NCBI GenBank assembly: GCA_018818835.1
Contig: JAHIRD010000141.1
Coordinates: 4,608-68,607, forward strand
Source of the DNA: Pseudomonadota bacterium
GTDB taxonomy: Bacteria; Desulfobacterota; Desulfobacteria; Desulfobacterales; Desulfolunaceae
Direction of reading: 5' to 3'
DNA: 64,000 nt
Shown here: positions 2,327-19,997 of the stretch, in pieces
Numbering within the stretch: the first letter of the stretch is position 1
How the letters are laid out: the number at the start of each line of letters is the position of its first letter
Program-made: the position numbers and the translations under genes
Notes under the pieces: model-generated
The model's database searches: none
Seen by the model: the letters and a program-made list of their open reading frames with translations, nothing else
What the model was told of the DNA's origin: nothing

Positions 2327-3202
2327 TTAAAAACGGCTTGTTACGTTGATTCCAAGACCTTTTTCATCTCCGGCCCTTATTTCGAGGCCCAGAGAGAATA
2401 ACTCCTTGATATTCATGGTCACCCCCACGAAATATCCAATGTTTTTAGACCATGTGATATCTTCTGTGTAATGAATGAACCCCTCATTAAAATAGAGGGT
2501 GCTGTAATTTCTGTTCGTATAATCCTCCGACCCGGTGATGCTGGCGACTTTTACTCCCATGTATGGAGAATAGGTTGGCATGTTTGCCGATAAACAGAAC
2601 GCCAGTTGAACCTCGTCAAGTGTGGATGCGTAGGATATTCCTTCTGACTTGAATCGGTCTTCTTCTATGGTTAATCGTCGGTAGGTGATATCCATTCCAA
2701 ATGTCACAGGGATATCACCTTTGTATTCTCCCCGGTGCATGACAAAACTTGCACCCATGCCATAATAAAGATCAGGCCCTGACTCGAAGGTATCATGGCT
2801 TGCATAGGACCTGCTGACGGTCCAGTCGCTGTAATCGAAATTAATGGTAGATGTGCTGGTCCCCAGAAGGGCGTAAATGATACTGCTGTCGTTGATGGGA
2901 GCACCGACTTTAAGCCCCATGGTATCCATGGTATTTTTTGATTTTCGTGTCTGGGGGTAATGGCGCTGCTCAGGAGGCGAAATGTTCGGATTGGTCCAGG
3001 GAAAACGCGTGATCTGTTCGGGAAGATCATTGACCTGCCTGTCAAAGGAAACCGTGGTGATGATTGATATTCCACCATCTTTCTGGAACGGACCTGGATT
3101 CCACAATGCCGGATCACCGATATTACCAACAGGAGCGGCACATACGGCAATGGGCAGTAAGATACAGAAGCAGATCAATAGCATGTAGGGTGTACGGTTC
3201 AT
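2327..3202 (-). CDS. Outer-membrane beta-barrel protein, possibly MOMP-like
   Basis: ATG at 3202 with a GGAGAAAAGGA RBS. Signal peptide LLICFCILLPIAVCA. Alternating-polarity strands and a C-terminal ...NVTSRF with terminal Phe, the typical BAM signal. The mature N-terminus PVGNIGDPALW weakly recalls the LPVGNPAEPSL start of chlamydial/Legionella major outer-membrane proteins (from memory). Confidence 0.6.
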   Translation of the reverse strand: MNRTPYMLLICFCILLPIAVCAAPVGNIGDPALWNPGPFQKDGGISIITTVSFDRQVNDLPEQITRFPWTNPNISPPEQRHYPQTRKSKNTMDTMGLKVGAPINDSSIIYALLGTSTSTINFDYSDWTVSRSYASHDTFESGPDLYYGMGASFVMHRGEYKGDIPVTFGMDITYRRLTIEEDRFKSEGISYASTLDEVQLAFCLSANMPTYSPYMGVKVASITGSEDYTNRNYSTLYFNEGFIHYTEDITWSKNIGYFVGVTMNIKELFSLGLEIRAGDEKGLGINVTSRF

Positions 3203-3279
3203 TCCTTTTCTCCGAATAAAACCTCGAACAAATCAGGACAAGCCAGGCAATGGACCGTTATTCCCACAGTTTATCATGA

Positions 3280-3317
3280 TGAAAAAATATCATGGGGGCG
3301 GGTTTTACTCCGCCCCA
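3280..3317 (-). terminator. Rho-independent terminator after the 166-aa secreted-protein gene
   Basis: Minus sense reads GGGGCGGAGTAAAACCCGCCCCC followed by ATGATATTTTTTCATC. It lies about 100 nt downstream of the stop at 3414. Confidence 0.5.
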
Positions 3318-3413
3318 TGCATCATGGTGTGCTTTAAATATACTGGGATTTTATAACGGACTGTTTTCTGACGAAAAAAAGGAGGTAAAAGAGTGGCTGG
3401 TATAACGGCCCCA

Positions 3414-3914
3414 TTAGTTGGTCGTTATTCGCACGTTTCCGCTGATCTGGGCATGATAGTCACGGATGCTGATACTCCCGAAACTGTTTCCTTCTCCTGG
3501 TTCCGTTCCCACGGTGATGGATCCGATGTCAAAATGATCGACGTCAATGGTGGCGCCGTTTAAGCTGACATTGATTCCTGTCATCATGGTATGGGAAAAA
3601 AGATCTTGCTCGGTTGTAACAGAAATGGATACGGGTTCTTGAAGGTTGATAACGCCCTGGAATGAAACGTCATTGACGCTTAAATACCCAGCAGTGCCAT
3701 CGGTCCCGTCCGAATCTCCGTAAACCATGCTTCCGATTTCCATGTTAAGGGCAATTTGATCTGCTGCTGTAATTGCAATTCCCGCCTGTGCTGTTGCTTC
3801 GCGCATTCCCGTCTCAGTAAGTGCAGACAAGACCGCATACCCTTTTGAAGGAGTGATGGCCATACCCATAGAAACACATAATACAATTGTCATTAGGAAA
3901 CTAAGCTTTTTCAT
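3414..3914 (-). CDS. Small secreted protein (166 aa) with an N-terminal TAQAG box; paralog family member a
   Basis: The best start is ATG at 3914 (MKKLSFLMTIVLCVSMGMA) with a GGAGA RBS; the longer track ORF to 4040 runs into the riboswitch array. After the signal peptide comes LTETGMREATAQAGIAI, a box shared with ORFs 10042..10746, 10793..11599 and 11812..12642. Confidence 0.7.
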   Translation of the reverse strand: MKKLSFLMTIVLCVSMGMAITPSKGYAVLSALTETGMREATAQAGIAITAADQIALNMEIGSMVYGDSDGTDGTAGYLSVNDVSFQGVINLQEPVSISVTTEQDLFSHTMMTGINVSLNGATIDVDHFDIGSITVGTEPGEGNSFGSISIRDYHAQISGNVRITTN

Positions 3915-3944
3915 TGAGATCTCCTTATCTGTCAACGTCCTACA

Positions 3945-4006
3945 GGCAACCCGGCTGTCCATGGAGGACCCGTGGCTTTCCGTCCCAGGATTGCTCCTGG
4001 TTTGGC
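3945..4006 (-). promoter_or_regulatory. c-di-GMP-I (GEMM-I)-like riboswitch aptamer, unit 1 (closest to the gene)
   Basis: Minus sense: GCCAAACCAGGAGCAAUCCUGGGACGGAAAGCCACGGGUCCUCCAUGGACAGCCGGGUUGCC. The blocks are CAAACC, a 6-bp stem with a GCAA (GNRA) loop, GGGACGGAAAGCC, a second hairpin, and GGGUUGCC. This order matches the GEMM-I aptamer architecture as I recall it. Confidence 0.8.
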
Positions 4007-4010
4007 ATAG

Positions 4011-4092
4011 GAGGCGGCTCGGCTGTCCATGAAATTGCAATGCAAAAAAATGGACCCGTGGCTTTCCGTCCCAGGGTTACCCCTGGTTTGGC
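4011..4092 (-). promoter_or_regulatory. GEMM-I-like aptamer, unit 2
   Basis: Minus sense: GCCAAACCAGGGGUAACCCUGGGACGGAAAGCCACGGGUCCAU[19-nt loop]AUGGACAGCCGAGCCGCCUC. GUAA tetraloop. The 3' end is the variant CCGAGCCGCC. Confidence 0.65.
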
Positions 4093-4119
4093 CTTGTACG
4101 TCTTCTGTTAACTGTTACA

Positions 4120-4197
4120 GGTAACCCGGCTATCCATTTTATCATAAAGAAAAAATGGACCCGTGGCTTTCCGTCCCAGGGTTACCCCTGGTTTGGC
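4120..4197 (-). promoter_or_regulatory. GEMM-I-like aptamer, unit 3
   Basis: Minus sense: GCCAAACCAGGGGUAACCCUGGGACGGAAAGCCACGGGUCCAU[AU-rich loop]AUGGACAGCCGGGUUACC, except that plus-strand tatcc at 4131-4135 gives GGAUAGCC in place of GGACAGCC. Nearly identical to unit 5. Confidence 0.8.
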
Positions 4198-4200
4198 TCT

Positions 4201-4270
4201 GGAGGCGGCCCGGCTGTCCACACAATTATGGACCCGTGGCTTTCTGTCCCAGGGTTACCCCTGGTTTAGC
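4201..4270 (-). promoter_or_regulatory. GEMM-I-like aptamer, unit 4
   Basis: Minus sense: GCUAAACCAGGGGUAACCCUGGGACAGAAAGCCACGGGUCCAUAAUUGUGUGGACAGCCGGGCCGCCUCC. Two point variants are present (CUAAACC, GACAGAAAGCC). It resembles unit 2. Confidence 0.65.
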
Positions 4271-4277
4271 AATAAAT

Positions 4278-4355
4278 GGTAACCCGGCTGTCCATTTTAT
4301 CATAAAGAAAAAATGGACCCGTGGCTTTCCGTCCCAGGGTTACCCCTGGTTTGGC
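4278..4355 (-). promoter_or_regulatory. GEMM-I-like aptamer, unit 5 (5'-most in the RNA)
   Basis: Same blocks as unit 3; 3' end GGACAGCCGGGUUACC. Confidence 0.8.
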
Positions 4356-4515
4356 GCGCTTGTCACCCTTTTACCTCCACGCCCACCCTTTTTTTACGAA
4401 AAGGGCAGGCATGGTCTGTCCCGACTTGTCAAAGAACATGAGCTCACCCCAACCATGCAGATAACCTAAGACGGATATCGACATGATACAGGGAAAACTT
4501 AACGATAATAATTGA

Positions 4516-6021
4516 TCAGTTCGATAAAGTGACAGTGATCCTGAAAAATTCCGGATCAGGATTATCCAGCACACTGATCAGATGAAGTTTATTTGAACCA
4601 TCAAAAACAAGGGGTATCCCATCAATAATGCTTTTAATCTTTAAATTAATTTCGTGGTCGTTAATTACCAGAATCACATTTTTCCCCTTTTCGGCCAGAT
4701 ACGCTATATTCATCCCATCCGGGCTGAACAGGGGATTGAAAATCCGTGAATAGCCACGTCCTTCAATCCCGTCAGTAACCAGAAAGATATTTTTTTTATC
4801 GAGAACTTCATAAAACATATGGTTTGAGTCATTACTGAAACATGGGCTTTTTACATCCATATATTTTTTACCGGGTTTACCGTCTAAAATCACCATGTTA
4901 TTTTTTTCAGTTTTGACTGTATAGGCAACGTGTTTTGAATCCGGGCTGAACACCGGAGTACCCACAAATGGATAAAATCCTTGTTCCTGCCCGTCACAAA
5001 TCACGGTAAACTTATTCTTTTTAATTCCGATATGGGCAAAACGATTGGAATCAGGACTGAAAATATATGTACCGAGAAGATCATATGCGGAACCTTCTTT
5101 CCTATCCATAACAAGTACCCATTTGTTTCCTTTTTTTGCAGGGTAGGCCATATGTTTTGAGTCGGGGCTGAATACGGGAAGGCCCACAGTAGGATATTTT
5201 TCATGTTCCTTACCATCTTCGACGATGAAGATTTTAAACTTTTTTTGGGCTGCATAGGTAAGTCTGGTGGAATCAGGGCTCCATGTAATGGTCAGAACAT
5301 TCTCATAGGGTTTCCCCGTGAATCCGTCTTTGAATAGGAACCATGCCCCGTCTTTGAGTACAGCGCCGGCCAGATGGTTTGAATCCGGACTGAAAATAAG
5401 CTCTTTGATTCCCAAAAATGTGCCGATCTTCCGGGAATTTTTGATAACAAACCATTCCTTACCTTTTACGGCGATATAAGCCAGGTGTTTTGAATCCGGG
5501 CTGAACAAGGGCCGGCTTTTAATTTGATCAAACGGTTCGCCTGCCCTGTGATTTAACACGACAAAGAGTTCATTTCCCATCTTGGCCTTATACGCAAACT
5601 GTTTGCCGTCCGGGCTGAAAATCAGGTCGGATACCCCATCGAAATCCGGTCCTTTTTTCCCATCGATCACCACACATTGCTTGGAACCTTGAACCGCGAT
5701 ATAAGCAAGCCGGTTTGTTTTCGGGCTGAAAAAAGGGGTCCCCTTGGCGATACCATCAAAATCCGGGCCTTTCTTCGTGTCCAGATGAACAGCCATTTTC
5801 TGGTTAACTCGCGTTGCATATGCCACATGCTCTGCATCAGGCTTGTTCGTAGTCAGTCCGAACAGTTTGGACTCTTTGGGGAGTTTTCCTAAAGAGGTTT
5901 TGGTGATTGATACAGTCGGTTTGTCGCTTTTTTGACCTGCAAAGACAGCCAGGGTATGTGAAAAAAAACCGATCAGGCAAATAGAAAACAATGTCATACT
6001 TATTTTTTGAAACAAAACCAT
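4516..6021 (-). CDS. Periplasmic PD40 (TolB-type WD40-like) beta-propeller repeat protein
   Basis: ATG at 6021 and signal peptide LFSICLIGFFSHTLAVFA. About ten repeats of roughly 45 aa carry FSPD(S/G)(K/N)xxAY (FSPDGKQFAY, FSPDSKHLAY, FSPDSNHLAG, FSPDSKHMAY, FSPDGMNIAY). Confidence 0.8.
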   Translation of the reverse strand: MVLFQKISMTLFSICLIGFFSHTLAVFAGQKSDKPTVSITKTSLGKLPKESKLFGLTTNKPDAEHVAYATRVNQKMAVHLDTKKGPDFDGIAKGTPFFSPKTNRLAYIAVQGSKQCVVIDGKKGPDFDGVSDLIFSPDGKQFAYKAKMGNELFVVLNHRAGEPFDQIKSRPLFSPDSKHLAYIAVKGKEWFVIKNSRKIGTFLGIKELIFSPDSNHLAGAVLKDGAWFLFKDGFTGKPYENVLTITWSPDSTRLTYAAQKKFKIFIVEDGKEHEKYPTVGLPVFSPDSKHMAYPAKKGNKWVLVMDRKEGSAYDLLGTYIFSPDSNRFAHIGIKKNKFTVICDGQEQGFYPFVGTPVFSPDSKHVAYTVKTEKNNMVILDGKPGKKYMDVKSPCFSNDSNHMFYEVLDKKNIFLVTDGIEGRGYSRIFNPLFSPDGMNIAYLAEKGKNVILVINDHEINLKIKSIIDGIPLVFDGSNKLHLISVLDNPDPEFFRITVTLSN

Positions 6022-6081
6022 GTTAAAACCTTTTCTTATTTACAAAATTATATGGTTGCATGATATCTCTGCACGGTCCAA

Positions 6082-7965
6082 TTAGTTGTATTCCGCTGAT
6101 AAACGCTCAAGATATCTGTTGAACTCTTCTTCTTCCGTTTCCTCGGTTGTATTCAATTTTGATTCATCCGATTCCGGATGTTTTTTCTTTTTAAAGGGAT
6201 TTAATTTATGAAACAGCTCTTTGATTTTATGGATGCTGTGCTTCATCATCATCTGTTGGTGGTGAAGCATCTCCATCTGGACTTCCAGGGGCATGGTCAC
6301 GCCGAATGTGACAAGATAGATGCTTAAATCCTGCTCGTAATCAAGGCCGGCAAAGGGATTTCCCATCTGGGTGAAATCCAGGGAGTTCATATTGGTGCTT
6401 TCGTTATTATAAATGGTGAAATGATTGCTCCACAGATATCCCAGGCCCAGGTCAAAATCGATGCCGTTGGGGAGTTTGAGGCCAATGCCCGCTCCCACGA
6501 AATCAGCGTCCGGGATAAAATACAGGGCATCGAACTGATCATGCTGCAAAGATGTGGGGCGTTTTTCGTACCCGCAGCGCAAGGTCAGTTTATCGTTGAC
6601 CTCGAATTCCATGGCAGTACTCCAGTGCCAGGTGTCTTTCATGTTTCTGTCCACCACAAAGGTATAGGCCCCATGCTGGTAGCCCAGCATTTTTGCAATA
6701 CGAAGAATCTGGATCCTTTGGTCAAACACAAATCGGTCTTCTTTGCCGGCTGCTGCCCAGTTGGCCCAATGAACATCAAAAAGAAATTTAATCCTGTCCA
6801 AGGGGCGGACCATAATCCCTGTTTGAACCCGTGCAGGAAAAATCTGAGTGGCTGTAACGGTTCCGCTCTGATAGGGCACGGCCTTGATGGGAAGGTCCAG
6901 CATGCCTGCCGATTCCATGGTCATGGGGGTCGAGGCATTCCAGGCCACCTGTTTTTGGAACTGCTTGCTGTATTCCCACATGTATTTTCCGGAAATTTCT
7001 CCTACGGATTCACTTTGATAGCAGAACCCGTAGGAAAACCAAGTCCGAGGGCGCCATAAAAGACCCAGGTTGTATGAGGGAACAAAATCGTCTCTAAGGT
7101 CCATGGTAATGCTGATGTTGTGCTCATAAGGCCCAAGGCCGCCTCCCAACCAAGGGGGCGGGAGGGTTTGCTCTGACACCACGGGAATTTCAAGATCCTT
7201 GGTAGCATCCCCGATAACACGGGTCATGGCCACGAGTTCGTTGGGTGTCCGTACATCCAATTCAAGGCCCATGGCTCGCTGGGCCATACCAATGGAAACA
7301 CCCAGGAAAAGCTGGTCAGATACAGCAAAACTGGCTGAAGGTGCTGCATAGATCAAATGTTGTGCATACAGGGACTTGCATCCGAACTGGAAGGGATCAC
7401 CCTCATCCCGGTGGGCCATTCCGCCAGCAAAGGGGGCATAGTTGGCGTATGCAAAGGTCCACTTGCTGTCCGGCTTTCGTGAGGCCAAGCCCAGGTTCGG
7501 ACCTGCTAAAAAATCAATGGGGCCGTAGAAGGGCAGGTACATACGTCCTGATGAGTTTGTACCCGATTTCCCGTTCAATGGGTCAGGCCCGCCGTGGTCG
7601 CTGTTGGGATCGGTTGCGGAATCGTAATATTCAGGATATTTATTCTCATCCGGCCCCCAGTAACCGTTCATGAACCCTTCAAAATCATCAGCGGTCTTAA
7701 ACCGTCCTGTTCGTTTGATGATGGGCAGGGCAAATCCGTTGCTGAAGGTCTTGCCTTCATCTAATAAAGACAATCCCGCAGGATTGTAATGAACGGACAT
7801 CAGGCCGGGCGGGTCGGCTGTGCAGGTATTGGCCAGGGACACGGCACGGGCATCCACGGCAAGCTGCTCATTAAAAACCGCATGGCTCAAGGAAGGCATC
7901 AGGAATATACAGATAGGTATGGTGAACAACCCGCTGTATTTTATTATGAGACAGAGAACGCGCAA
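6082..7965 (-). CDS. FadL/TodX-family outer-membrane channel with an unusual charged C-terminal tail
   Basis: After the signal peptide: DARAVSLANTCTADPPGLMSVHYNPAGLSLL, a FadL-type N-terminal motif. I prefer the TTG start at 7965 (AGGAGA, then 6 nt, then TTG, giving M-RVLCLIIKYSGLFTIPICIFLMPSLSHA). The track ORF start at 8046 would overlap the upstream gene by 52 nt. Confidence 0.7.
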   Translation of the reverse strand: MRVLCLIIKYSGLFTIPICIFLMPSLSHAVFNEQLAVDARAVSLANTCTADPPGLMSVHYNPAGLSLLDEGKTFSNGFALPIIKRTGRFKTADDFEGFMNGYWGPDENKYPEYYDSATDPNSDHGGPDPLNGKSGTNSSGRMYLPFYGPIDFLAGPNLGLASRKPDSKWTFAYANYAPFAGGMAHRDEGDPFQFGCKSLYAQHLIYAAPSASFAVSDQLFLGVSIGMAQRAMGLELDVRTPNELVAMTRVIGDATKDLEIPVVSEQTLPPPWLGGGLGPYEHNISITMDLRDDFVPSYNLGLLWRPRTWFSYGFCYQSESVGEISGKYMWEYSKQFQKQVAWNASTPMTMESAGMLDLPIKAVPYQSGTVTATQIFPARVQTGIMVRPLDRIKFLFDVHWANWAAAGKEDRFVFDQRIQILRIAKMLGYQHGAYTFVVDRNMKDTWHWSTAMEFEVNDKLTLRCGYEKRPTSLQHDQFDALYFIPDADFVGAGIGLKLPNGIDFDLGLGYLWSNHFTIYNNESTNMNSLDFTQMGNPFAGLDYEQDLSIYLVTFGVTMPLEVQMEMLHHQQMMMKHSIHKIKELFHKLNPFKKKKHPESDESKLNTTEETEEEEFNRYLERLSAEYN

Positions 7966-7993
7966 AAAAAATCTCCTGTTCCTGAACCTGCCA

Positions 7994-9100
7994 TTACAAT
8001 TCGTAGGCAAAAGGGACTCTAACCTGAAGGGAAAAATCAGAGTCATTATTGGTCAAACCGATTCCCAGCCGGACATTCACAGAACGTTTCGGTGTAATGT
8101 TCCAGCCTGTTCCTATGCTGAAAACCGAGGAAATAGATCCTTCGGAACGTGTTTCCCGTGGCCCTTCCGGTCTGACCCAGTCATAGGATGTTTTGGACTG
8201 GTATGAATACTGATAGCTCAAGGTCAGGGATGCTTTATAGGACAGGGAATAGCCGATACCCATGGAAAAGGAATAAACTTCTCCAGGCTTGACACCGGCG
8301 AGGAATATTCCGGCTTCACCTTGAGTCCCGGTTTTGGAATTCAAATGGGTGGTTTCAATCCCATGCTCCACATTTATACCACCAAAAGCAACCAGGGGGT
8401 CGATGGATTTGCTGACATTGCAGCCCATGCCGATGGAATAGGTTCCGTTGCCCGTCGACATTTCTTTGGTGCTGTCAATTTTATAGGGGCTTCTTCCTGT
8501 TGGGCATGTTAATGACCCCGAGACAATTATTGATGGCAGGTCCTTACCGCTTTTCACGGGTTGGAATTGGAGACCGAACGACGTATCTCCAAAATCTGAA
8601 ACATTCTTTGCTGACGTATTGGTCTGGCTGTTGTATTTGTAAACAAAGGGGATATTGCTGTTTACTGTCAGGTTTTCTTTGACAGGATACTCGATGAGAA
8701 ATGAATTGGTCACCGTGTGGTATGCGTTGTGTTTCACGGCCACAATACTATCTGCATTGGCGGTGACGTTATCATAAGAATCACCGGCATAGCGAATGCT
8801 GTATTCAAAACCCAGTTTCCCAGGCTTCATGAGGGTATAATCACGGCCTGCGGCTGAAAGAATCGCGTCATCTTCAGAACTTTTTTCTTCCTGGGTGGTT
8901 TCAAGACGCCGCCTAATATCATTTTCTTCTTCCATTTTCGTGAGCTTGTCTTCAAGTCGTTTGATCTGCTCCTTGAATTGCTCCATATCGCTTGAAGGCT
9001 GCGCCTGCACGTTCACCACAGGGGGGGCTTCGGCATAAACCGCAGAGGTGAGAGTTATCATGGCTAAAATGATCAGTAGTTTTGTAAAATGTTTTATCAC
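7994..9100 (-). CDS. Outer-membrane beta-barrel with an N-terminal coiled coil (FapF-like architecture)
   Basis: GTG at 9100 follows GGAGG at 8-nt spacing and gives the signal peptide IKHFTKLLIILAMITLTSAVYA. Alternative starts are 9127 and 9139. A heptad-rich segment MEQFKEQIKRLEDKLTKMEEENDIRRRLETTQEEK is followed by about 270 aa of amphipathic strands ending ...QVRVPFAYEL. Confidence 0.6.
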   Translation of the reverse strand: MIKHFTKLLIILAMITLTSAVYAEAPPVVNVQAQPSSDMEQFKEQIKRLEDKLTKMEEENDIRRRLETTQEEKSSEDDAILSAAGRDYTLMKPGKLGFEYSIRYAGDSYDNVTANADSIVAVKHNAYHTVTNSFLIEYPVKENLTVNSNIPFVYKYNSQTNTSAKNVSDFGDTSFGLQFQPVKSGKDLPSIIVSGSLTCPTGRSPYKIDSTKEMSTGNGTYSIGMGCNVSKSIDPLVAFGGINVEHGIETTHLNSKTGTQGEAGIFLAGVKPGEVYSFSMGIGYSLSYKASLTLSYQYSYQSKTSYDWVRPEGPRETRSEGSISSVFSIGTGWNITPKRSVNVRLGIGLTNNDSDFSLQVRVPFAYEL

Positions 9101-9147
9101 CTGGTTTCCCTCCGGACTCGGAACCATCTGGTCAGACAAAAATGGTT

Positions 9148-9912
9148 CTATTGTTTATACCGGTTAGTCTTTGTGTCTGTCGTAGTTCCATTATTATGAA
9201 AATCAGCTTCCCATTCCTGGGGAAGGTCAAATGGTCTGTCTACATCGAACATCAGAGTTTTTTCCATATCCTTATCTATAAACCGGAGATCCTGTTCTTT
9301 GAGGCTTAGGCAGGACAGGGCGTTCCCGTATTTCGGGTAGATTCTGAAAAGGATATTGTTATACCACATGCCCATAAACTGGTCCACCGGGTAACTCCCG
9401 TTTCCCCGCCAGGGATCGGCTACGAACACATGGCCTTTGTGAATGGCTTTCAAGACCACAAAATGACGGTAGCCGAACAGCTCTATGGGAACAATGCATG
9501 GCCAGAGTTCAGGATTTTTCAGGTCGGAAAGCTCCGCGTTGTAGCCACCGGCCTTGTACCCCAGAACATCCACGAACTTCTGCATGTCCCAGAGGGAAAA
9601 AGCTCTGAGTTTTTTAATTTGTTCTTTGTCCCCATACTCTAGAAGACCCTTGATAATTTGTTTTTCAGTAAAATTTTCTCCCAGGTAGTTGTTGAGGATG
9701 GTCCCTAAAGCCGCTGATCCGCAGCTGTAATCGTAATTTTGCTTCATCAGGCAGGCCTGGGAACTTTCGGAGAGAGGGATGACTTCAGGGTAGATGCGCA
9801 AGGCTTCATTAGTCCCCATGGCAATATTCAATTCACCTTTGGGGGATGAATGGAAGGGATGAAATCCTGAGATCAGTCCAGCAAAAATGATAAATGCAAA
9901 AACCACATGCAT
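9148..9912 (-). CDS. Secreted C39-family (bacteriocin-processing type) cysteine peptidase domain protein
   Basis: ATG at 9912 with an N-terminal hydrophobic signal. Q-x5-C motif in KQNYDYSCGSAALGTIL, His in YRHFVVLKAI, and Asp in HVFVADPW. This is the complete C39 Gln/Cys/His/Asp arrangement. Confidence 0.8.
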   Translation of the reverse strand: MHVVFAFIIFAGLISGFHPFHSSPKGELNIAMGTNEALRIYPEVIPLSESSQACLMKQNYDYSCGSAALGTILNNYLGENFTEKQIIKGLLEYGDKEQIKKLRAFSLWDMQKFVDVLGYKAGGYNAELSDLKNPELWPCIVPIELFGYRHFVVLKAIHKGHVFVADPWRGNGSYPVDQFMGMWYNNILFRIYPKYGNALSCLSLKEQDLRFIDKDMEKTLMFDVDRPFDLPQEWEADFHNNGTTTDTKTNRYKQ

Positions 9913-10041
9913 ATTATAACCCTCTATCCATCGCGCAGGAGAAATTTCCTGCCCACTGTTCCCAAAGTATTGAAACAGTACATATCAAAAAATATCGGAA
10001 AAGGCACTGTATTATTGCTGTGATATCCAGGTTCACGGCGG

Positions 10042-10746
10042 TCATGGAGAATCCCACCACGTTCCAATTGAACCCGATTTAATCTCAGTCTCATCATACC
10101 CTGCAACGACCTTGAGGCCGGGCGTTGATCCACTCTGGCCCAGGTCTAATATAAAAAAAAGACCCATGTTACTGGTTGGGCTTCCATCGGAATTGAAATT
10201 AAATGTGGTCTGCCCCAGGTTGGCTTTATCATATACGGTCGGGCTTCCACCACTTAAGGCGATGGCAGGATTGTATGTGCCGGAGTAGCTGAGCATGTTG
10301 GCGCTGATCGTCCCCTGGAGCCGATTGGATCCTATGACGATGCGTTCGAGAACAGGATTTGTGGCAGAGGTGTCATCAAAGTCGGCAATAAAGACCAAAC
10401 CGTCAATGGTCAGGGGGGTATCCGTAGATGTATCCCCCAAAATCACATTGTTCCATTGAATATCATAGTTTGCTGCTGCTCCGCTCCTTAAGCTGTCGAT
10501 GGTCGCGTAGGTTTCCATATGAATATCCAGAAAAAGTCGGGCCGTACTGTTGCTCATGGTGAAATTGGTTAAACCGGCCTGGCCGGTCGATGATTTGAGC
10601 GCGTTTTCGTCCATGGCTTTGAGCTCGGCATGGAGCGACGATGGTAAGAATATAAAACAGAAAATAACAAGCACCATTAACTGGTAAACCAGTTTATCTC
10701 TGAACAAAAGTCCATCGAATCGGTGTATGAAAATTACTCTGTTCAT
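10042..10746 (-). CDS. Secreted protein (234 aa) with an N-terminal TGQAG box; paralog family member b
   Basis: ATG at 10746. Signal LMVLVIFCFIFLPSSLHA, then ELKAMDENALKSSTGQAGLTNF. Ser/Thr/Gly/Asn-rich and beta-rich, with no Cys after the signal peptide. Confidence 0.7.
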   Translation of the reverse strand: MNRVIFIHRFDGLLFRDKLVYQLMVLVIFCFIFLPSSLHAELKAMDENALKSSTGQAGLTNFTMSNSTARLFLDIHMETYATIDSLRSGAAANYDIQWNNVILGDTSTDTPLTIDGLVFIADFDDTSATNPVLERIVIGSNRLQGTISANMLSYSGTYNPAIALSGGSPTVYDKANLGQTTFNFNSDGSPTSNMGLFFILDLGQSGSTPGLKVVAGYDETEIKSGSIGTWWDSP

Positions 10747-10792
10747 TATGCTGTATTCCTGCCTTACCCTATTTATTCGTTATGATAACGGC

Positions 10793-11599
10793 TTAAGGAT
10801 TTCCTAACCCACGGCCGGGGATCTCTATGTAAAGTTTTTGAACATTCATGCCGTCAATTGCAAATAGACCCAAGTCTGTCGTGCCTGAGTCAGGAGCATT
10901 GACCTGTATATTATCGATATGGAAGGAACCCGACATGGGCATGTTCAAGCTGATATGTGCATTAGATTCAGCTGAAATATCGATGGTTGCAGGCTTGTTA
11001 TTCGTAAGATCACCCACTTGAATATCAAAGGTGATACCGGAAAAGTTCAACGCGTCTGTCGTGTTGTACTTATAAGAGAGAGTGTCTATTGTGATTTTGT
11101 GGCCTAGTTCGTAGTCGATACCCATACTGCCGACATGGGGCCCAATGAACAGGTGAAAAGATGACAGGACCATGGATTCAGCGGTTAGAGAACCGATATT
11201 TGTTCCGGAAAAATCGATGGCGTCAATGGTCATATCCGTGGATATTGAAATATCAGGACTTTGGCTAAAAAACATGATTTGATCATTGTAAGTGCCCACA
11301 TCAATGCTCAAATGGTTGATTTTGCCGTCATCGTCCATGTCAGATGAACCTGTGTTTGTGTGGGTAAGAATATGGATGTCGTTGAAGCTTATATATTCAG
11401 TTTCATCATCGGGATTGTAAAAGGTCATGTTGTCACTGTGGACTTCTGTGATCATGTCACCAATGGCGATATCAATACCGGCCTGGGCCATGGTTTTTTT
11501 CATCTGTTGGTTGGACAGTGCTTCAAGGCAGCATCCGGTGTCCGGGATGATGCTTATGATGCTCAACACGATGAATAAGTATGTTAAGGCCTGGGTCAC
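10793..11599 (-). CDS. Secreted protein (268 aa) with an N-terminal MAQAG box; paralog family member c
   Basis: GTG at 11599 after AAGGA. Hydrophobic N-terminus LTYLFIVLSIISII, then LEALSNQQMKKTMAQAGIDIAIGD. Asp/Ser/Thr/Ile-rich. Confidence 0.65.
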   Translation of the reverse strand: MTQALTYLFIVLSIISIIPDTGCCLEALSNQQMKKTMAQAGIDIAIGDMITEVHSDNMTFYNPDDETEYISFNDIHILTHTNTGSSDMDDDGKINHLSIDVGTYNDQIMFFSQSPDISISTDMTIDAIDFSGTNIGSLTAESMVLSSFHLFIGPHVGSMGIDYELGHKITIDTLSYKYNTTDALNFSGITFDIQVGDLTNNKPATIDISAESNAHISLNMPMSGSFHIDNIQVNAPDSGTTDLGLFAIDGMNVQKLYIEIPGRGLGNP

Positions 11600-11641
11600 A
11601 GAGTTGTCCTTTAAAACATAATGTTTTGTATGTCACTCCAA

Positions 11642-11708
11642 GGCAACCCGACCATCCGGTGGGCACCGGACTCGAAGCTTTCCGTCCCCGGATTGCTCCG
11701 GGTTTGGC
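11642..11708 (-). promoter_or_regulatory. GEMM-I-like riboswitch aptamer in the leader of the 10793..11599 operon
   Basis: Minus sense: GCCAAACCCGGAGCAAUCCGGGGACGGAAAGCUUCGAGUCCGGUGCCCACCGGAUGGUCGGGUUGCC. Stem 1 is CCCGGA/UCCGGG with a GCAA loop (compensatory changes relative to the other copies). It ends 42 nt upstream of the start codon. Confidence 0.8.
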
Positions 11709-11732
11709 GTTTCTTGAAACATTTGATCCTAT

Positions 11733-11776
11733 GAAAAAGCCCCTTCCGGGAAACATCTATGTTCAGGGAAGGGGCT
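11733..11776 (-). terminator. Rho-independent terminator after the 276-aa gene
   Basis: Minus sense: AGCCCCTTCC-loop-GGAAGGGGCT (10-bp stem) followed by TTTTTCAT. It starts about 35 nt downstream of the stop at 11812. Confidence 0.65.
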
Positions 11777-11811
11777 CCACGTAAATCACTTATGAGGATT
11801 GTGCTAATTCA

Positions 11812-12642
11812 TTAGTGAGCAGCGATTTCAACAATTCCACCAAGGATAGCCATTGCGCTCTGGCCTTTGGAAATTTTGATGAAGTTTGCATTATTGTTGA
11901 TACCGGTTCCTGCAACACCAACTGAATATTCATCAGCTGTGGTGGAGATAAGAAGGGTCGGAAGACCAATCACAACACCAGTGACAGCCTGAGTGGTACC
12001 AATCGCAGTTGCTGTAGGATCAGCTGCAAGAGTAGCAACACCGGAACCTAAAAGAACGCCGGCTTCAGAGATGTCACGAACATCAGTATCTGCAGAAATA
12101 GTAGCAAGTGCAGTTGCTTTTGCAGTACCGAGAGCAATAAGGTTGGCCATAGAAGGATCGCCAGCATAGGTAGCAGCTGCTGTGGCAACAAGACCTGATT
12201 GAGTCAATACGGTAGTCAGGAGTGCACCGGCATCAGCATTAATGATGGCATTATTGGCATTAACTCCAGCTGCAAGGATTGAACAAGCTCCTACGTCAAT
12301 GTTAAGAGCAGCAGCTTCAACCCAAGTACCCTTGTTGACAACACCAGCTGCAGCAAGGAAGTCAGCTTCGTAATCAGTCTGTGAAGTCATGGCTAGGTAT
12401 TCTTTCACAACGTGTTTGTCACTGATAACGATTGAGCCTTCAACACCGTTTGTTCCGTCTTCATCCGTATAAGTGGTTGAACCTGTGAATTGTTCGATCA
12501 CAACGTTATCCAAAGTGATGCTCACACCAGCCTGACCAGTGGCGGATTTCATGTTGGCGTCAGTCATTGAAGTCAAAGCAAAGACTGAAGGAGCGATTGC
12601 GAGAGATGCACCAAGAACTAAACTCATAGCTAATTTTTTCAT
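11812..12642 (-). CDS. Secreted Ala/Gly/Thr/Val-rich protein (276 aa) with an N-terminal TGQAG box; paralog family member d
   Basis: ATG at 12642 with a GGAGAAGAAA RBS (the track start 12654 is a TTG). Signal MKKLAMSLVLGASLAIAPSVFA, then LTSMTDANMKSATGQAGVSITLDN. The rest is low-complexity A/G/T/V sequence. It has its own terminator and its own riboswitch-like leader. Confidence 0.75.
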   Translation of the reverse strand: MKKLAMSLVLGASLAIAPSVFALTSMTDANMKSATGQAGVSITLDNVVIEQFTGSTTYTDEDGTNGVEGSIVISDKHVVKEYLAMTSQTDYEADFLAAAGVVNKGTWVEAAALNIDVGACSILAAGVNANNAIINADAGALLTTVLTQSGLVATAAATYAGDPSMANLIALGTAKATALATISADTDVRDISEAGVLLGSGVATLAADPTATAIGTTQAVTGVVIGLPTLLISTTADEYSVGVAGTGINNNANFIKISKGQSAMAILGGIVEIAAH

Positions 12643-12686
12643 TTTCTTCTCCAAAGTAAAATTAAAAATTAATTTAATTTACCAGA

Positions 12687-12762
12687 GGCAACCCGACCAT
12701 CCCCATCGCAAGCATGATGCGGACTCGTTGGCTTTCCGTCCCTGGATTACTCCAGGTTTGGT
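12687..12762 (-). promoter_or_regulatory. GEMM-I-like riboswitch aptamer, variant with A at the selectivity position
   Basis: Minus sense: AUACCAAACCUGGAGUAAUCCAGGGACGGAAAGCCAACGAGUCC...GGAUGGUCGGGUUGCC. Stem 1 is CCUGGA/UCCAGG with a GUAA loop. The base two nt 5' of CAAACC is A here; it is G in the other six copies. Confidence 0.75.
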
Positions 12763-13765
12763 ATTTTCTTTGGCGGTTTTGCTTGCGCACCCTTGCGCAA
12801 GACAAATTGATTTGTAAAAACGATTTACCATTAAACAGATTCGTTTAACGTTCTTAAGAATTAGCCTCCTTTCCATATAAAAAGAAATGTCCCCACATTC
12901 CAGTTAATATTCATATCCCTAATGAGTCTTTTTAAAGATCTTAAGGGACACGCGACGACCTAACTAAAGCCGCCGGAAACAACATGTATGTAAATTTTAG
13001 AAAGAGCTGATTTATGCCTACCTCGTAAACCGGTTGGCTGTGCGGCCCATGTGTTCTCGTGTGTGGGCCTTGTCTTCGCATTCAATCATCGGATGAACCA
13101 TTCAAAAATTGAAAGACCGTAACAATGTTTTATAAAACGTACGAAGATAATCCTTATGTACGAAAGTAGTAGGGTCGAATGATGATTGTATATCCGCTGC
13201 CCTTTTGCTTTGTCAATTAAAAATTTTCGATTTTCTTAAAAATTAAATTGTACGAGTATAAAAAAAAGTACTTGAAACGATTGACAATAGTCATTGTGAA
13301 CGCTGTTCATCAGTTGTGCCAAATGTACTAAATAGGTCCATTCGGTTGTACAGCTGTTAAAATATCGAAATTTCAGGCATTTGAATTATAGCCCCGAAAA
13401 ATGATTTCGCGAAATCCTGCGAAAATATGGGCTTTTACCGAACAATGTTCATGTACTGGAATGGGATTTTGAGGAAAAAATATGATTTCTATTGAGTTTT
13501 TAAGGAACTTGCGCGTTTGGTAAGGTACCTTTTTGATAAATCGGGGGTCACCATGGGCGTTTGTCAGGTGAAAGTAATTCAATTATCCGATTTTAAAGGT
13601 ATTTTAACTGAATATATGTAAAAAAGTTCTTAGCTTTATTAAGTATTTTACCCAAGGAGAGAAACATAGTTTCAATAAATGGACATAGATCTTAATGACG
13701 ATCATGATACTCAGACCCTATGTTTTTAAGGGCTCGCAGGCGTTTAATTGAAGGATGGCATGGGA

Positions 13766-13781
13766 TGGCACGTATGTTGCT
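13766..13781 (+). promoter_or_regulatory. Sigma-54 (-24/-12) promoter, orphan
   Basis: TGGCACGTATGTTGCT is an exact match to the TGGCACG-N4-TTGCW consensus. There is no plus-strand ORF of 60 aa or more downstream before 19959. Confidence 0.5.
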
Positions 13782-14354
13782 ATTTTATCCATTATTATTC
13801 GAGGGGTCGGATAATACAAAAGATCATGTCATAGGATGTGGCAAAGAAAAGCACATTGGAAATTTTAAAGGCATCATAGGTCTCTTGGGTTTAAGCCGCT
13901 GAGACCGCATTATCGGGAAAGGTTATCCTTATTGGATTCCCGTTACACACATAAAGCCTGGTATACGCGTGTTGAACGGTAATCTGGGGAATGATTGTGA
14001 CATCCTGTAATGAATGGTTCTTCATTTGGCTTAAGCAAGGGGTACCCTTACATGCCCCAACGACGCTTATCTACGCGTCGTAGATCATACTTATTTTTCG
14101 CAAGTGTTTAACCAGAAGCCTTTCCGCGACGACTTCAAGGAATTTCTGCGATTTTTTTCAGCCTATTTGGCCATTTTATTCATCAGTGGCTCAGGGTTTT
14201 CTCTGTTTTAAATTTCCAAATTATACACTATAAAAAATTAGCCATGTGGTTTTCCCAAAGAGAGTCCTATATATAAGGTGCAAAATCTTATGATTTTCTC
14301 ACAGAGGTACAAAAATTCGGAGAACAACTCAGGGACAGGCCAATAATACACTCA

Positions 14355-14659
14355 CCACCCGGTCGCATAGCTCACTGAAAAACACAGCGTGGCAAAGCCA
14401 CACCCAAAAGCCTCGTCTCTCACGGTGGCACAAAGATTACGGAGAAGTGCCAAAAGCTGATTGCGATGTAAAAAGCCCCATATACAGCGTTATCGTGTTT
14501 AGCTGGGCTTAAATATACGACCAAGTATGCCTTCACGCCCGGCTAAACACTATGCCTTGCCTATGGACCTTGTTTCATAGCCATCCATCGACTTTTTATG
14601 AGTTCATCAAAGCTTGTGAATAATAGTTTTTTCTTTGTGATCTTTGTGCCTCTGTGGGA
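14355..14659. repeat. Composite MITE-like repeat: a family-A hairpin element with a family-B element nested in its loop
   Basis: Family A arms are tctcacggtggcacaaagattac (14417-14440) and gtgatctttgtgcctctgtggga (14637-14659), which are inverted. The interior 14465-14613 matches the family-B element at 58016-58175 (cgtgtttagctggg...cccggctaaacac hairpin, then ...ccatccatcg...gagttcatcaaagc). Confidence 0.7.
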
Positions 14660-16969: not shown

Positions 16970-19483
16970 TTATCCTTTTGTCACTGTTTTTAATGACAGG
17001 TGGCTTTTTGATTTTTCCCGGAAAGGGGCGGAATGGGTCTGGGTTGAGTCGTCTTTGGCTTTTTTGTCAAAATAAATCTGAAGAATCAAAAGCCTGGCCA
17101 TGGCAAGGATGTCTTTTTCTGAGGCCCTGTCATTTAAAATGGGGTCTTTGATCCGGTTCAGAAAATCCACCGGGCTTTCCGAGCCAAGGATTGAACAGAC
17201 AACATCCTTGAAGACAGGCTCTCGGTAAGTGACCCAGAGTTCCATTTTCTCAATGTCCTGTTTCATTTGGCCCAGGGCCTCCTGGATGTGTTTTGTCCTC
17301 AACCCGTTTCTGTAATAGTCTTCGGCCATGCTGTTGAATTCTTCGGCCGGAATTTTCATGGGGTTTTTGATGGTTTTTTTCTTTTTACGGGAGATGTGAC
17401 CCATAATTCCCTGGCTGAGCTTTGATGAAACCGACGATTCAACATGATGTGTCAGGCGATTCTCAAGATCGGCCATGGTTTTTTCAAGGCCAAGTTCACG
17501 GATCAGCTCTTTTCCATCTTCTTTGAGCATGGACAGAAGACCCATGCGATATTCCTGATTTTTAACCCGGACATATCGGGGATACCGATTGCTTTTTCTG
17601 CTTTTTTTTGTGTGGCTGAGAATGTTCGAAAGAAAACGGTTTGTGCTGTCCATGGAGACGTAGAAGGTCGGTATGCCGATGGCCGTCCCAAAAAAGATCT
17701 GTCGCCTCTCACTTTCCGTGAATGGATCATCGGGGATATCCAGGTGATCGACCTGACCCGTGAGGATGTACTGATAGCACAAGGCCGTGATCAACATCTG
17801 AAGATTGATCGCATGGGTGAGGTCTTCTCCCGGATTGTCGAACATGCTGTAATAGCGACCTTCAAATCCGGAAAAACCCATGTCCGAGTGCTTGCGCATC
17901 CGATACAGAAGGTACATGGGCATTCTCATGTCAAAAATACCCATGTCGTCCAGGTCTTTTTTAAGGCGGGTATCATTTCCCGGGCGTCCGTCCAAAGCCG
18001 GACTTTCATCGGAACTCATCAGGCAGGCAAAATAGTCGATGAGCCTGAAGTCGGGGACCACATCACCTTTAAGGCCGAATATGCGGCTGGTCAGTCGGTC
18101 CACCCATTCGGGACCGAAGGGCGTGAGGGTCCGGCCCAGGATATTTAATGAGGCCTTTTTTTTCCATCGCCGCCATATCATCCGAAGATGTGTGAAATCA
18201 AGTTCATGGGGAAGAAAGCTCAGAACTTTTTCAGGATGAAAATCCTTGAAAGAAAGCCTGTAGGGGGCCGCACTGTAGGTGTTCACAAAAAGGGGGAGAA
18301 AATGTTCGGTGATTTTGATCACCAGATCACCCAGGTATTTTTCATGCTCTGCTGTGAACCCCGAGTTTTTATTTTCAAGGAGACGGGATAGTTTTTTGCT
18401 GCCCAGGCTCACATGGGTTCCGTTATTGGCAAGACTGATGTTGGACATGTTGGGCAAAACCACCAGATTCCGGGTGATAATGCCCGCATTTTTCAGTTTG
18501 GATACCGCATTCATCTGGCTTCGGGAAAGGACACGGTGGCAGAGTCCCATGTATTGTTTTTTTTCCTCGCCTTTATCCCAGCCCGAAAGGCAGGGGCTCA
18601 TGAATAATTCCCGGTAGAACGAATCCGGGATGATGTCATTGATCATTTTCTGACGTACGGGCGGGGTGGCAGCCGAATACGTGAAAACGGTTTGCCCGCT
18701 TTGGTTGAGGCCGAATTTTTTGTTGGCATACTGGGTGAGAATCTGTGTGAGGAGAAACCGTTTCACGGCCTCTCCTGATGCAGCTTCCCCGATGCTTGAT
18801 CCTTTGCTGTGCTGGGCCGTGTAAAAGGAAAAAATTTCAGGGGAGGAGTTATCGTTTAAAAAATGATGCATCAGGCTCTCTCCGGTCACTTTGATCACGC
18901 TGTGGGTGTCCGGCTCAGAGCCGATGATGTCGGCCAGTGACAGTTTCAGAAGATAGCTGACCGGGATGCGGAGCAGGCTCATGTCATCGTCTTTGATGAA
19001 AAAAGTGTGTGCATCACTGCGGCGGGGGGAGTCGGGTTTGGATTTATCGCTCAGAAGATCCTGGTTGAAAACAAGTTTTGCATAAGAGCTTAAACAGGAC
19101 ATATCCAGGCGAACCCAGCTGTTTTCCCAGATCTGGCTGTGATTATTTTCGATAAATTGCCGGAGTCTCTCTTGAAGTGATCTGTCATTGTCACCTGACT
19201 GGGCCCGTTTGATGACGTTTCTGTAATAGTTGGAGTTCCTGATCATCCGGGGCAGATCCACCCGGTCACCGGAACCCATGACAACAGTCTGGAATTCATT
19301 TTCAAGTCCTGCTGTTGTGTCGTTTGATGAAAAGGGCAGGGATTTAACAAGATTTTCCGGTGAACTGAAATCAATGCCCAACAAGTCGCAGAGTTGGGAT
19401 AAAAGGGAATTTGAGGTATCATGGGGTGTTTGAATTTTTATTTGAGTGTTAATTAGCACATGAATCCTTTTCTGAATAGACAC
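16970..19483 (-). CDS. Large (837 aa) cytoplasmic protein of unknown function; first gene of the psd/lgt-like operon
   Basis: Long uninterrupted ORF, 5 nt from the downstream psd-like start. No signal peptide or TM segment, and no motif I can assign. Confidence 0.6.
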   Translation of the reverse strand: MSIQKRIHVLINTQIKIQTPHDTSNSLLSQLCDLLGIDFSSPENLVKSLPFSSNDTTAGLENEFQTVVMGSGDRVDLPRMIRNSNYYRNVIKRAQSGDNDRSLQERLRQFIENNHSQIWENSWVRLDMSCLSSYAKLVFNQDLLSDKSKPDSPRRSDAHTFFIKDDDMSLLRIPVSYLLKLSLADIIGSEPDTHSVIKVTGESLMHHFLNDNSSPEIFSFYTAQHSKGSSIGEAASGEAVKRFLLTQILTQYANKKFGLNQSGQTVFTYSAATPPVRQKMINDIIPDSFYRELFMSPCLSGWDKGEEKKQYMGLCHRVLSRSQMNAVSKLKNAGIITRNLVVLPNMSNISLANNGTHVSLGSKKLSRLLENKNSGFTAEHEKYLGDLVIKITEHFLPLFVNTYSAAPYRLSFKDFHPEKVLSFLPHELDFTHLRMIWRRWKKKASLNILGRTLTPFGPEWVDRLTSRIFGLKGDVVPDFRLIDYFACLMSSDESPALDGRPGNDTRLKKDLDDMGIFDMRMPMYLLYRMRKHSDMGFSGFEGRYYSMFDNPGEDLTHAINLQMLITALCYQYILTGQVDHLDIPDDPFTESERRQIFFGTAIGIPTFYVSMDSTNRFLSNILSHTKKSRKSNRYPRYVRVKNQEYRMGLLSMLKEDGKELIRELGLEKTMADLENRLTHHVESSVSSKLSQGIMGHISRKKKKTIKNPMKIPAEEFNSMAEDYYRNGLRTKHIQEALGQMKQDIEKMELWVTYREPVFKDVVCSILGSESPVDFLNRIKDPILNDRASEKDILAMARLLILQIYFDKKAKDDSTQTHSAPFREKSKSHLSLKTVTKG

Positions 19484-19944: not shown

Positions 19945-19997
19945 CCTGACAACGCAAGATGGTAACAATTAAATTCAATTTAGTGGTGGAGTTGAAT

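Follow-up and report, generated by a model that had tools for sequence, protein, structure and literature searches.

We describe a gene cluster in a 64,000-nucleotide stretch of DNA (the window) from a Desulfolunaceae bacterium (GenBank assembly GCA_018818835.1, contig JAHIRD010000141.1). The cluster occupies positions 2327-12772 of the window, and its genes are co-oriented on the minus strand. We think it probable that it encodes a Fil-type, Sec-dependent system for export and assembly of a surface fiber, under the control of second-messenger riboswitches in a Desulfobacteraceae-like host. All four core proteins, namely a small secreted protein (cargo 1), a C39 cysteine peptidase, an outer membrane β-barrel, and a FadL-like outer membrane protein, have a Fil family as their best NCBIfam model. 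We therefore class the locus as a new and distant representative of the Fil-type system, which is known but mechanistically uncharacterized. Its added value lies in a candidate bacteriocin-style leader behind the Sec signal and in recurrent control by cyclic di-GMP (c-di-GMP) riboswitches. The closest named relatives of the window proteins come from Desulfobacteraceae such as Desulfatiferula, Desulforapulum, and Desulfoluna. In sequence, the window is an identical match to a metagenomic contig of 158 kb (ENA ERZ27247128, k141_1157839).

An initial annotation of this DNA had described three paralogous Sec-type secreted proteins, a C39 peptidase, and a barrel on the minus strand at 7994-12642. 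The open reading frames (ORFs) are there, and cargo 1 to 3 all reach the Pfam family DUF6160. The module is larger than proposed, however: the FadL-like gene, a PD40 gene, a fourth cargo gene, a small barrel gene, and the riboswitches lie outside those limits or were missed. The system was also called undescribed, and this does not hold, since the cargo is DUF6160, the core proteins match FilA to FilD best, and Fil fimbriae have been seen on Acinetobacter. The suggestion that the cargo forms a fiber, matrix, or surface layer survives in part; a surface fiber is the best reading, but of a system that already has a name. On direct reading of the sequence, every cluster protein opens with a segment that resembles a signal peptide. 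The features, in the order of transcription, are as follows.

12684..12772, minus strand: c-di-GMP-I riboswitch aptamer, 5′ of cargo 1 (RF01051, 53 bits)
11812..12642, minus strand (ORF also 11812-12654): cargo 1, probable major fiber subunit, DUF6160/FilA-like, 276 amino acids (PF19657, FilA)
11738..11776, minus strand: terminator-like hairpin and T-run after cargo 1 (inverted repeat I7)
11639..11718, minus strand: c-di-GMP-I aptamer, 5′ of cargo 2 (RF01051, 61.7 bits)
10793..11599, minus strand: cargo 2, DUF6160 paralogue, 268 amino acids, probable minor subunit (PF19657)
10042..10746, minus strand: cargo 3, DUF6160 paralogue, probable minor subunit (PF19657)
9148..9912, minus strand: stand-alone C39 cysteine peptidase, FilB/FapD-like, 254 amino acids (Peptidase_C39, FilB, FapD)
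7994..9139, minus strand: FapF/FilC-like outer membrane β-barrel with an N-terminal helical (coiled-coil-type) periplasmic segment (FilC, FapF)
6082..8046, minus strand: FadL/OmpP1-family outer membrane protein, FilD-like (Toluene_X, FilD)
4516..6021, minus strand: secreted PD40 β-propeller-repeat protein, probable accessory component (PD40)
3946..4367, minus strand: four consecutive c-di-GMP-I-type aptamers, 5′ of cargo 4 (Rfam)
3414..3914, minus strand: cargo 4, short DUF6160 protein, 166 amino acids (PF19657)
2327..3202, minus strand: small secreted β-barrel-like protein, 291 amino acids, syntenic (weak OMP_b-brl)

Core proteins, their relatives, and gene order

Cargo 1 matches the NCBIfam model FilA (E = 5e-06, 26 bits; cut-off, 220), the peptidase matches FilB (4.4e-54, 184 bits; cut-off, 475), the barrel matches FilC (3.4e-56, 191 bits; cut-off, 630), and the FadL-like protein matches FilD (5.4e-83, 279 bits; cut-off, 970). 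These Fil models are of the narrow "exception" type. The models of the Pseudomonas Fap system score lower, with FapD matched by the peptidase (7.3e-33, 114 bits; cut-off, 330) and FapF by the barrel (1.2e-21, 77 bits; equivalog cut-off, 700). Pseudomonas loci recovered through the barrel have intermediate scores (FilA, 1e-15; FilB, 5e-85; FilC, 3e-100; FilD, 7e-159), still below the cut-offs; the family is therefore a continuum from Acinetobacter through Pseudomonas to Desulfobacterota.

The barrel belongs to the Pfam family Phenol_MetA_deg and matches the sequences of the FapF crystal structures with an E value of 2.4e-15. An AlphaFold model, built on 66 homologues (predicted local distance difference test [pLDDT], 85), has only FapF entries as its top Foldseek matches (E = 3.8e-22; template modeling [TM] score for the target, 0.81-0.89). 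The COG4313 channel 4RL8 comes next (5.5e-14), followed by autotransporter barrels. The kinship to FapF and FapD proposed in the initial annotation is thus borne out by profile searches of both proteins and by the predicted fold of the barrel, although the Fil models score higher. Where that annotation placed an N-terminal coiled coil, the mature N terminus has predicted helices at 49-75 and 79-93, with hydrophobic residues spaced roughly 4-3-4-3, and the barrel follows. In our alignment of the barrel with its relatives (A1), the motif ILSAAGRxYTL is conserved at the junction of the periplasmic helices and the barrel, around residues 90-103. Its position is comparable to that of the Gly-rich junction of FapF, which has been discussed as a possible FapD cut site.

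The peptidase matches Peptidase_C39 (4.8e-15) and the double-glycine protease structures LahT150 (6MPZ) and PCAT1 (4RY2). Its SCG cysteine, HFVV histidine, and ADP aspartate align on DCG, HFVV, and ADP of PCAT1, so the Cys, His, and Asp assigned earlier are in place. The protein stands alone, with no fusion to an ABC transporter, and no ABC transporter was found in the cluster among the ORFs or by a Pfam scan. It has an N-terminal hydrophobic segment and is therefore predicted to be periplasmic.

The FadL-like protein matches Toluene_X (2.2e-30) and PorV_fam (2.7e-09), and no FadL model is among the NCBIfam matches listed for it. Since the public gene call has 605 amino acids and the listed ORF 654, the true start probably lies inside the ORF. 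The C terminus (6082-6290) carries a tail of about 70 residues after the barrel, His/Met/Lys-rich and then acidic, MEMLHHQQMMMKHSIHK...EETEEEE; a FilD-like protein of Pseudomonas, at 530 amino acids, has no room for such a tail. Downstream, the PD40 protein (PD40, 4.4e-17) has homologues in many related loci (32 ORF matches), and the 291-amino-acid protein, with a weak match to OMP_b-brl (0.0024), has a downstream homologue in 10 loci. Neither of these two matches a Fil family in NCBIfam, a library that may or may not include FilE and FilF models.

Fil fimbriae of Acinetobacter sp. Tol 5 are long, curved nanofibers, abundant on cells grown on triacylglycerol, and Edman degradation identified FilA on this strain (PMC3498257, citing Hori et al. 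2011). Purification and imaging of "curved, thin FilA pili" have been described for Acinetobacter genomospecies 16 (PMC11539960), and in A. baumannii filF is upregulated in pellicles and biofilms (PMC3203104, PMC7273844). We found no account of the structure or assembly mechanism of a Fil pilus in the searchable literature, nor any paper there in which Fil and Fap gene names appear together. Our locus shares four core proteins and their order with the Acinetobacter system: first a DUF6160 subunit with a signal peptide and box, then a C39 peptidase that stands alone, then a FapF-like barrel, and last a member of the FadL family. Its host, by contrast, belongs to Desulfobacterota and not to Gammaproteobacteria. 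There are four diverged subunit paralogues where Acinetobacter has one named FilA, the subunit genes carry c-di-GMP riboswitches, cargo 1 has an Ala-rich four-helix insert, and PD40 and small-barrel accessory genes are present.

We then looked at gene order in other genomes. One genome per GTDB species was scanned with the barrel alignment, which gave 110 relatives, and the best 80 loci were examined. They come from Desulfobacteraceae, Desulfolunaceae, and Desulfatibacillaceae; from Smithella and Syntrophaceae; from Geobacteraceae; from one metagenome-assembled genome each of Thermodesulfovibrionales and Bacteriovoracaceae; and from four Pseudomonas. In 80/80 loci, and on both copies of the window's own contig, the barrel gene is directly followed by the FadL-like gene. 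In most of the loci the C39 gene directly precedes the barrel and has one to five DUF6160 genes before it. The order cargo, C39, barrel, FadL-like is found in most loci and in dozens of genomes, far beyond chance. The invariant core is therefore the barrel with its FadL-like partner, whereas the peptidase and the leader-bearing cargo go with each other. Groups orthologous to cargo 1, 2, and 3 recur in the order 1-2-3 or 3-1-2, a pattern that points to separate functions, for instance as major versus minor subunits.

The co-occurrence counts cover loci whose upstream sequence is 3 kb or longer, after removal of four false positives of the regular expression. Both C39 and cargo are present in 39 such loci, C39 only in 3, neither in 17, and cargo only in none (Fisher's test, P ~4e-12). 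This P value is overstated because the loci without C39 belong to one Smithella/Syntrophaceae clade. Under our locus numbers, the clade comprises:

L017, L020, L021, L023-L025, L028, L029, L032, L036, L039, L042, L045, L048
L050, L051, L054-L057, L064, L065

In L017, L024, and L050, the three that we inspected, a long stretch of low complexity extends the barrel at its N terminus, and the gene before the barrel encodes a conserved membrane protein of about 370-390 amino acids.

Subunits and their N-terminal box

The four cargo proteins reach Pfam DUF6160 (PF19657; gathering score, 27 bits) with 37.2, 28.0, 30.6, and 36.8 bits for cargo 1, 2, 3, and 4, respectively; the E values are 3.6e-09 for cargo 1, 4e-07 for cargo 3, and 4.9e-09 for cargo 4. 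They are only 19-27% identical overall but share an N-terminal box, as the initial annotation had noted, and their BLAST similarity is confined to the first 50-80 residues or so. Cargo 4 matches cargo 1 with an E value of 3e-11; cargo 2 found none of its paralogues by BLAST at E ≤ 0.01, and its orthologous position is retained across related loci. The public gene call for cargo 3 is 211 amino acids long, which places an internal start near 10677. In the three paralogues the box reads as follows.

Cargo 2: LEALSNQQMKKTMAQAGI
Cargo 3: ELKAMDENALKSSTGQAGL
Cargo 4: LSALTETGMREATAQAGI

All cargo proteins are β-rich, and Ser, Thr, Asp, Gly, and Ala are abundant in them. The AlphaFold model of cargo 1 (pLDDT, 83) has a β-core, 40-119 and 221-273, split by an Ala-rich four-helix insert at 121-207. 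Foldseek found no fold match for it in the PDB (best E = 0.047; TM, <0.2), and a sequence search of the PDB had no match either. No protein of the cluster matches a Fap subunit family in NCBIfam, and neither the cargo genes nor the proteins contain tandem or internal repeats; the cargo is indeed unrelated to FapB and FapC, as had been claimed. On the model, cargo 1 resembles a globular β-core with a helical insert and does not look like an amyloid-type repeat protein. Cargo 1 is the probable major fiber subunit, and cargo 2 and cargo 3 are probable minor subunits.

An exhaustive single-sequence search with residues 1-100 of cargo 1 returned 123 clusters at 50% identity among 1.84 billion representatives. 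Multi-stretch matches in three of the proteins found (P0321, P0352, and P0361) suggested poly-subunit precursors, but these are in fact unrelated Ser/Thr/Gly-rich repeat proteins. When a homology search was seeded with the FilA-like protein of Pseudomonas, the best 120 matches were Pseudomonas and unnamed DUF6160 proteins, with no Acinetobacter FilA among them.

Among 78 homologues of cargo 1, 77 have the box core Q-[AST]-G-[ILVMF] within the first 90 residues, and in these 77 a signal-peptidase site (A-x-A) is followed by a stretch of fixed length that ends at the invariant Q-x-G. The window paralogues and the Pseudomonas proteins have the box too. Its 15-residue consensus after the Sec signal peptide is L-x-x-[LM]-[ST]-[DE]-x-[DEQ]-[ML]-K-x-[VIA]-T-[GA]-Q. 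We numbered a logo of 55 nonredundant boxes from this Gln, taken as -1, so that the Ala of the signal-peptidase site is at -16. The search pattern had preset seven positions: L/M at -15, L/M/I/V at -12, M/L at -7, small G/A at -2, Q (100%) at -1, G (100%) at +2, and I/V at +3. At the remaining, unconstrained positions, S/T/D makes up 74% at -11, D/E 68% at -10, D/E/Q 60% at -8, V/A/I 82% at -4, T 72% at -3, and A 63% at +1.

Leu-12, Glu-8, Leu-7, and Val-4 of double-glycine leaders bind the C39 domain as a two-turn helix, and known C39 peptidases cleave after Gly-Gly, Gly-Ala, or Gly-Ser (PMC6363468). Provided that cleavage falls right after the invariant Gln, the DUF6160 box is an exact match to the double-glycine register; other registers do not fit. 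It carries [G/A]-Q where double-glycine leaders carry G-G, so that -1 is Gln and not Gly. In the AlphaFold model of cargo 1, a short helix is predicted at residues 28-35 and the first strand starts at residue 40; the box would therefore fill exactly the space from the Sec signal to the folded domain, as their linker. When we ran box-only 25-mers against NCBIfam in search of bacteriocin-leader models, they matched FilA only, at model positions 19-43 (E = 5.6e-06 and 0.004), and bona fide FilA therefore has the same element. From these patterns we infer that the box is a propeptide cleaved by the C39 peptidase, with the cut after Gln or after Q-x-G. A synthetic peptide of the box type, LTSMTDANMKSATGQAGVSITL, is a candidate C39 substrate.

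The peptidase can be set beside those of the PCAT/AMS group (LahT, PCAT1, and ComA). They share a homologous peptidase domain and, if the cut follows the invariant Gln, a leader register with hydrophobic residues at -12, -7, and -4, an acidic residue at -8, and a small one at -2. The locus differs from them in that its peptidase is unfused and predicted to be periplasmic, its leader follows a Sec signal peptide, [G/A]-Q and then x-G replace G-G, and its substrates are structural proteins of 17-28 kDa rather than peptides. With Pseudomonas Fap, the locus shares a periplasmic C39 peptidase with its catalytic residues, a barrel of the FapF fold with an N-terminal helical segment, and Sec-dependent substrates. 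Unlike Fap, it has an obligatory FadL-like partner and no homologues of FapA, FapB, FapC, or FapE and no amyloid repeats. We know of no FadL-like partner in fapA-F. The substrates differ as well: those at our locus carry a recognizable C39-type leader, but canonical C39 motifs are absent from the Fap proteins (PMC5557850).

c-di-GMP aptamers in the 5′ leaders

Rfam finds six aptamers of the c-di-GMP-I clan, all in 5′ leaders: one 5′ of cargo 1, one 5′ of cargo 2 and placed after the cargo 1 terminator, and four in a row 5′ of cargo 4. Five of the six reach the gathering score, four as RF01051 (53-65 bits versus 35) and one best as RF03167 (62.7 versus 59). The copies of the array are:

4275-4365, minus strand: 64.9 bits
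4117-4207, minus strand: 64.1 bits
4009-4101, minus strand: 62.7 bits, best as RF03167
3946-4008, minus strand: 53.3 bits, partial (model positions 8-75), found in the E-value search only

The best Rfam label was "c-di-GMP-I-GGC variant." We rejected it; most copies score higher as RF01051 under gathering thresholds, and we read from the alignment that the position defining the variant is A in them instead of G. In the cargo 1 aptamer, the equivalents of G20, A47, and C92 appear canonical when read from the alignment. Set beside RF01051 riboswitches, the locus differs in having four consecutive aptamers before one small gene. A possible use of such a series would be cooperativity or a sharper threshold, to give two examples.

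The terminator-like hairpin after cargo 1 (I7) has 15-nucleotide arms, 87% complementary, with a 9-nucleotide gap, and TTTTT follows on the minus strand. The cargo 2 aptamer is complementary, at its 3′ end, to the Shine-Dalgarno region of cargo 2 (duplex, -12.6 kcal/mol). This complementarity suggests, tentatively, that binding of c-di-GMP turns cargo 2 translation on. For the cargo 1 aptamer, complementarity to the ribosome-binding site is weaker.

The arrangement recurs elsewhere. An aptamer lies directly 5′ of the cargo 1-like gene in the distant loci L026, L061, and L067, and a consensus pattern places one there in the close loci L003-L011 as well; L003, L004, and L011 also have four matches to this pattern at the position of the array. 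This placement was not found in the Pseudomonas loci or in most of the other distant loci scanned. We did not find an association of aptamers with DUF6160 genes in the searchable literature.

Proposed pathway, competing explanations, and genomic setting

In the pathway we propose, c-di-GMP would bind the aptamers 5′ of cargo 1, 2, and 4 and, for cargo 2 at least, would probably free the ribosome-binding site. Sec would carry the four DUF6160 subunits and the accessory proteins across the inner membrane, together with the C39 peptidase, the barrel, and the FadL-like protein. Signal peptidase would then leave on each subunit a 15-residue propeptide in the double-glycine register, and the periplasmic FilB/FapD-like peptidase would recognize this propeptide and cut it at the invariant Q-x-G or directly behind it. 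The subunits, unfolded or folded only in part, may traverse the FapF/FilC-like barrel, whose periplasmic coiled coil, by homology to FapF, would recruit them or act as a gate. The FadL-like FilD partner is a putative co-channel, anchor, or assembly platform. Cargo 1 would polymerize into a thin fimbria like that of Acinetobacter FilA, and cargo 2, 3, and 4 would serve as minor, initiator, or anchor subunits, as their conserved orthologous positions suggest.

A more general proposal is one we advance with less conviction, as an idea that may well fail. Fil-type systems and, by extension, Fap-type systems might be one widespread outer membrane fiber pathway, in which the C39 peptidase removes a second, bacteriocin-style leader (P2-P1 = [G/A]-Q) and so licenses passage through the pair of FapF-like barrel and FadL-like protein, with c-di-GMP riboswitches switching the pathway in Desulfobacterota. 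If so, the DUF6160 box would be the first defined substrate motif for the clade of periplasmic C39 peptidases.

Judging from this locus and its 80 relatives, the Fil machinery amounts to that of Fap with a FadL-like partner added, and anaerobic Desulfobacterota have it widely. On Acinetobacter, clinical A. baumannii included, Fil fimbriae are abundant. A subunit motif that fits the C39 recognition rules opens a direct test of the targets of FapD and FilB, a question that dates from the 2017 FapF structure paper. The riboswitches link the fibers to c-di-GMP signaling in organisms whose biofilm biology has hardly been studied.

Several points weigh against the assignment to a Fil-type fiber system and against the pathway as drawn. 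Every Fil score is far under its curated cut-off (26-279 bits versus 220-970), so the locus is a distant relative and not an equivalog. The experimental anchor is the FilA filaments only. The direction of riboswitch control is derived solely from the thermodynamics of folding, with a weak case for cargo 1, and the hydrophobic positions of the logo are partly imposed by the search pattern. Shared ancestry inflates the co-occurrence statistics. The Smithella/Syntrophaceae clade has the barrel and FadL-like pair with neither C39 nor cargo nearby; the pair can therefore work in another context, and in that clade it may serve another cargo or function. For the peptidase, Gln at P1 would be without precedent in the C39 family (PMC6363468), and the target of FapD in the Fap system is perhaps FapE or FapF rather than a fiber subunit (PMC5557850).

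These last two points also speak for the competitor that we take most seriously, even though we consider it unlikely: that the box is retained, as a targeting, chaperoning, or donor-strand element, and that the C39 peptidase activates the machinery instead, through a cut in the barrel linker, for instance, or in a minor subunit. The linker carries the conserved AAGR motif, and conservation of the box runs on into the first β-strand, Q-A-G-V-S-I. Yet the register (-12, -8, -7, -4, and a small residue at -2) fits the C39 recognition helix (PMC6363468), and the box spans exactly the distance from the signal-peptidase site to the start of the predicted fold. Moreover, in loci with sufficient upstream sequence, leader-bearing cargo occurs only where the C39 gene is present.

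A Fap-type functional amyloid, with subunits from a new amyloid family, is improbable. The FapD- and FapF-like machinery and the composition of the β-rich cargo would fit it. Against it stand the absence of imperfect repeats at the DNA and protein levels, the lack of any match to a Fap subunit family, the confident globular β-core with its four-helix insert in the AlphaFold model, and a FadL-like partner that is not known from fapA-F. The nearest named relatives, in addition, make curved fimbriae and not amyloid (PMC3498257, PMC11539960).

We give equally little credence to the idea that the barrel and the FadL-like protein take up hydrophobic substrates, in the manner of COG4313 and FadL, with DUF6160 proteins as surface binders or emulsifiers rather than fiber subunits. 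Several observations point this way: the barrel belongs to Phenol_MetA_deg and has the COG4313 channel as its second-best fold match, its partner is of the FadL family, and the Smithella pair lacks C39 and cargo. Many of the hosts bear names of hydrocarbon or fatty acid degraders (Smithella, Desulfatibacillum alkenivorans, and Desulfatiferula olefinivorans), and the Tol 5 fimbriae were seen on triacylglycerol-grown cells (PMC3498257). FapF clearly beats COG4313 as a fold match, however (3.8e-22 versus 5.5e-14), and the barrel retains the periplasmic helical segment of the FapF type. A processing peptidase and leader-bearing secreted proteins favor export. So does the regulation: GEMM-I regulons associate c-di-GMP control with surface and biofilm structures. 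Finally, although bacteriocin export typically uses C39 peptidases and double-glycine-type leaders (PMC6363468), secreted bacteriocin-like toxins are a most implausible cargo here, at 166-276 amino acids with Sec signal peptides, with fimbrial subunit FilA among their homologues, and in a cluster that has neither an ABC transporter nor an immunity gene.

The surroundings of the cluster add some minor observations. A stretch of about 1.7 kb (12880-14590), upstream of the cargo 1 riboswitch, has no convincing ORF and no Rfam match. GC content is low there (0.405 for 12001-14000), and a 22-nucleotide inverted repeat lies at 14492-14553 in this ORF-poor stretch, which could be a promoter or regulatory region or an undescribed RNA. 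A sigma-70 promoter scan was uninformative, with fewer matches than in shuffled sequence. Three large ORFs adjoin the cluster, 16970-19483 (minus strand), 19959-23999 (plus strand), and 24643-28740 (plus strand), of 837, 1346, and 1365 amino acids, respectively; none matches a Pfam family at E ≤ 1e-5. A mir-1270 match at 24182-24262 (plus strand), inside a large ORF, was taken as chance (39 bits versus a gathering score of 90). A PrrF small RNA (L081, 13488-13637; 135 bits) lies about 3 kb downstream of a Pseudomonas Fil-like cluster and is probably coincidental. Genes for cyclic-dinucleotide signaling are frequent in the window: it also holds a CdaA-type diadenylate cyclase at 28869-30470 (plus strand) and a 1110-amino-acid protein at 44450-47782 (minus strand) in which HEAT repeats and a cyclic-nucleotide-binding domain are joined by PilZ at the C terminus, PilZ being a family of c-di-GMP receptor domains.

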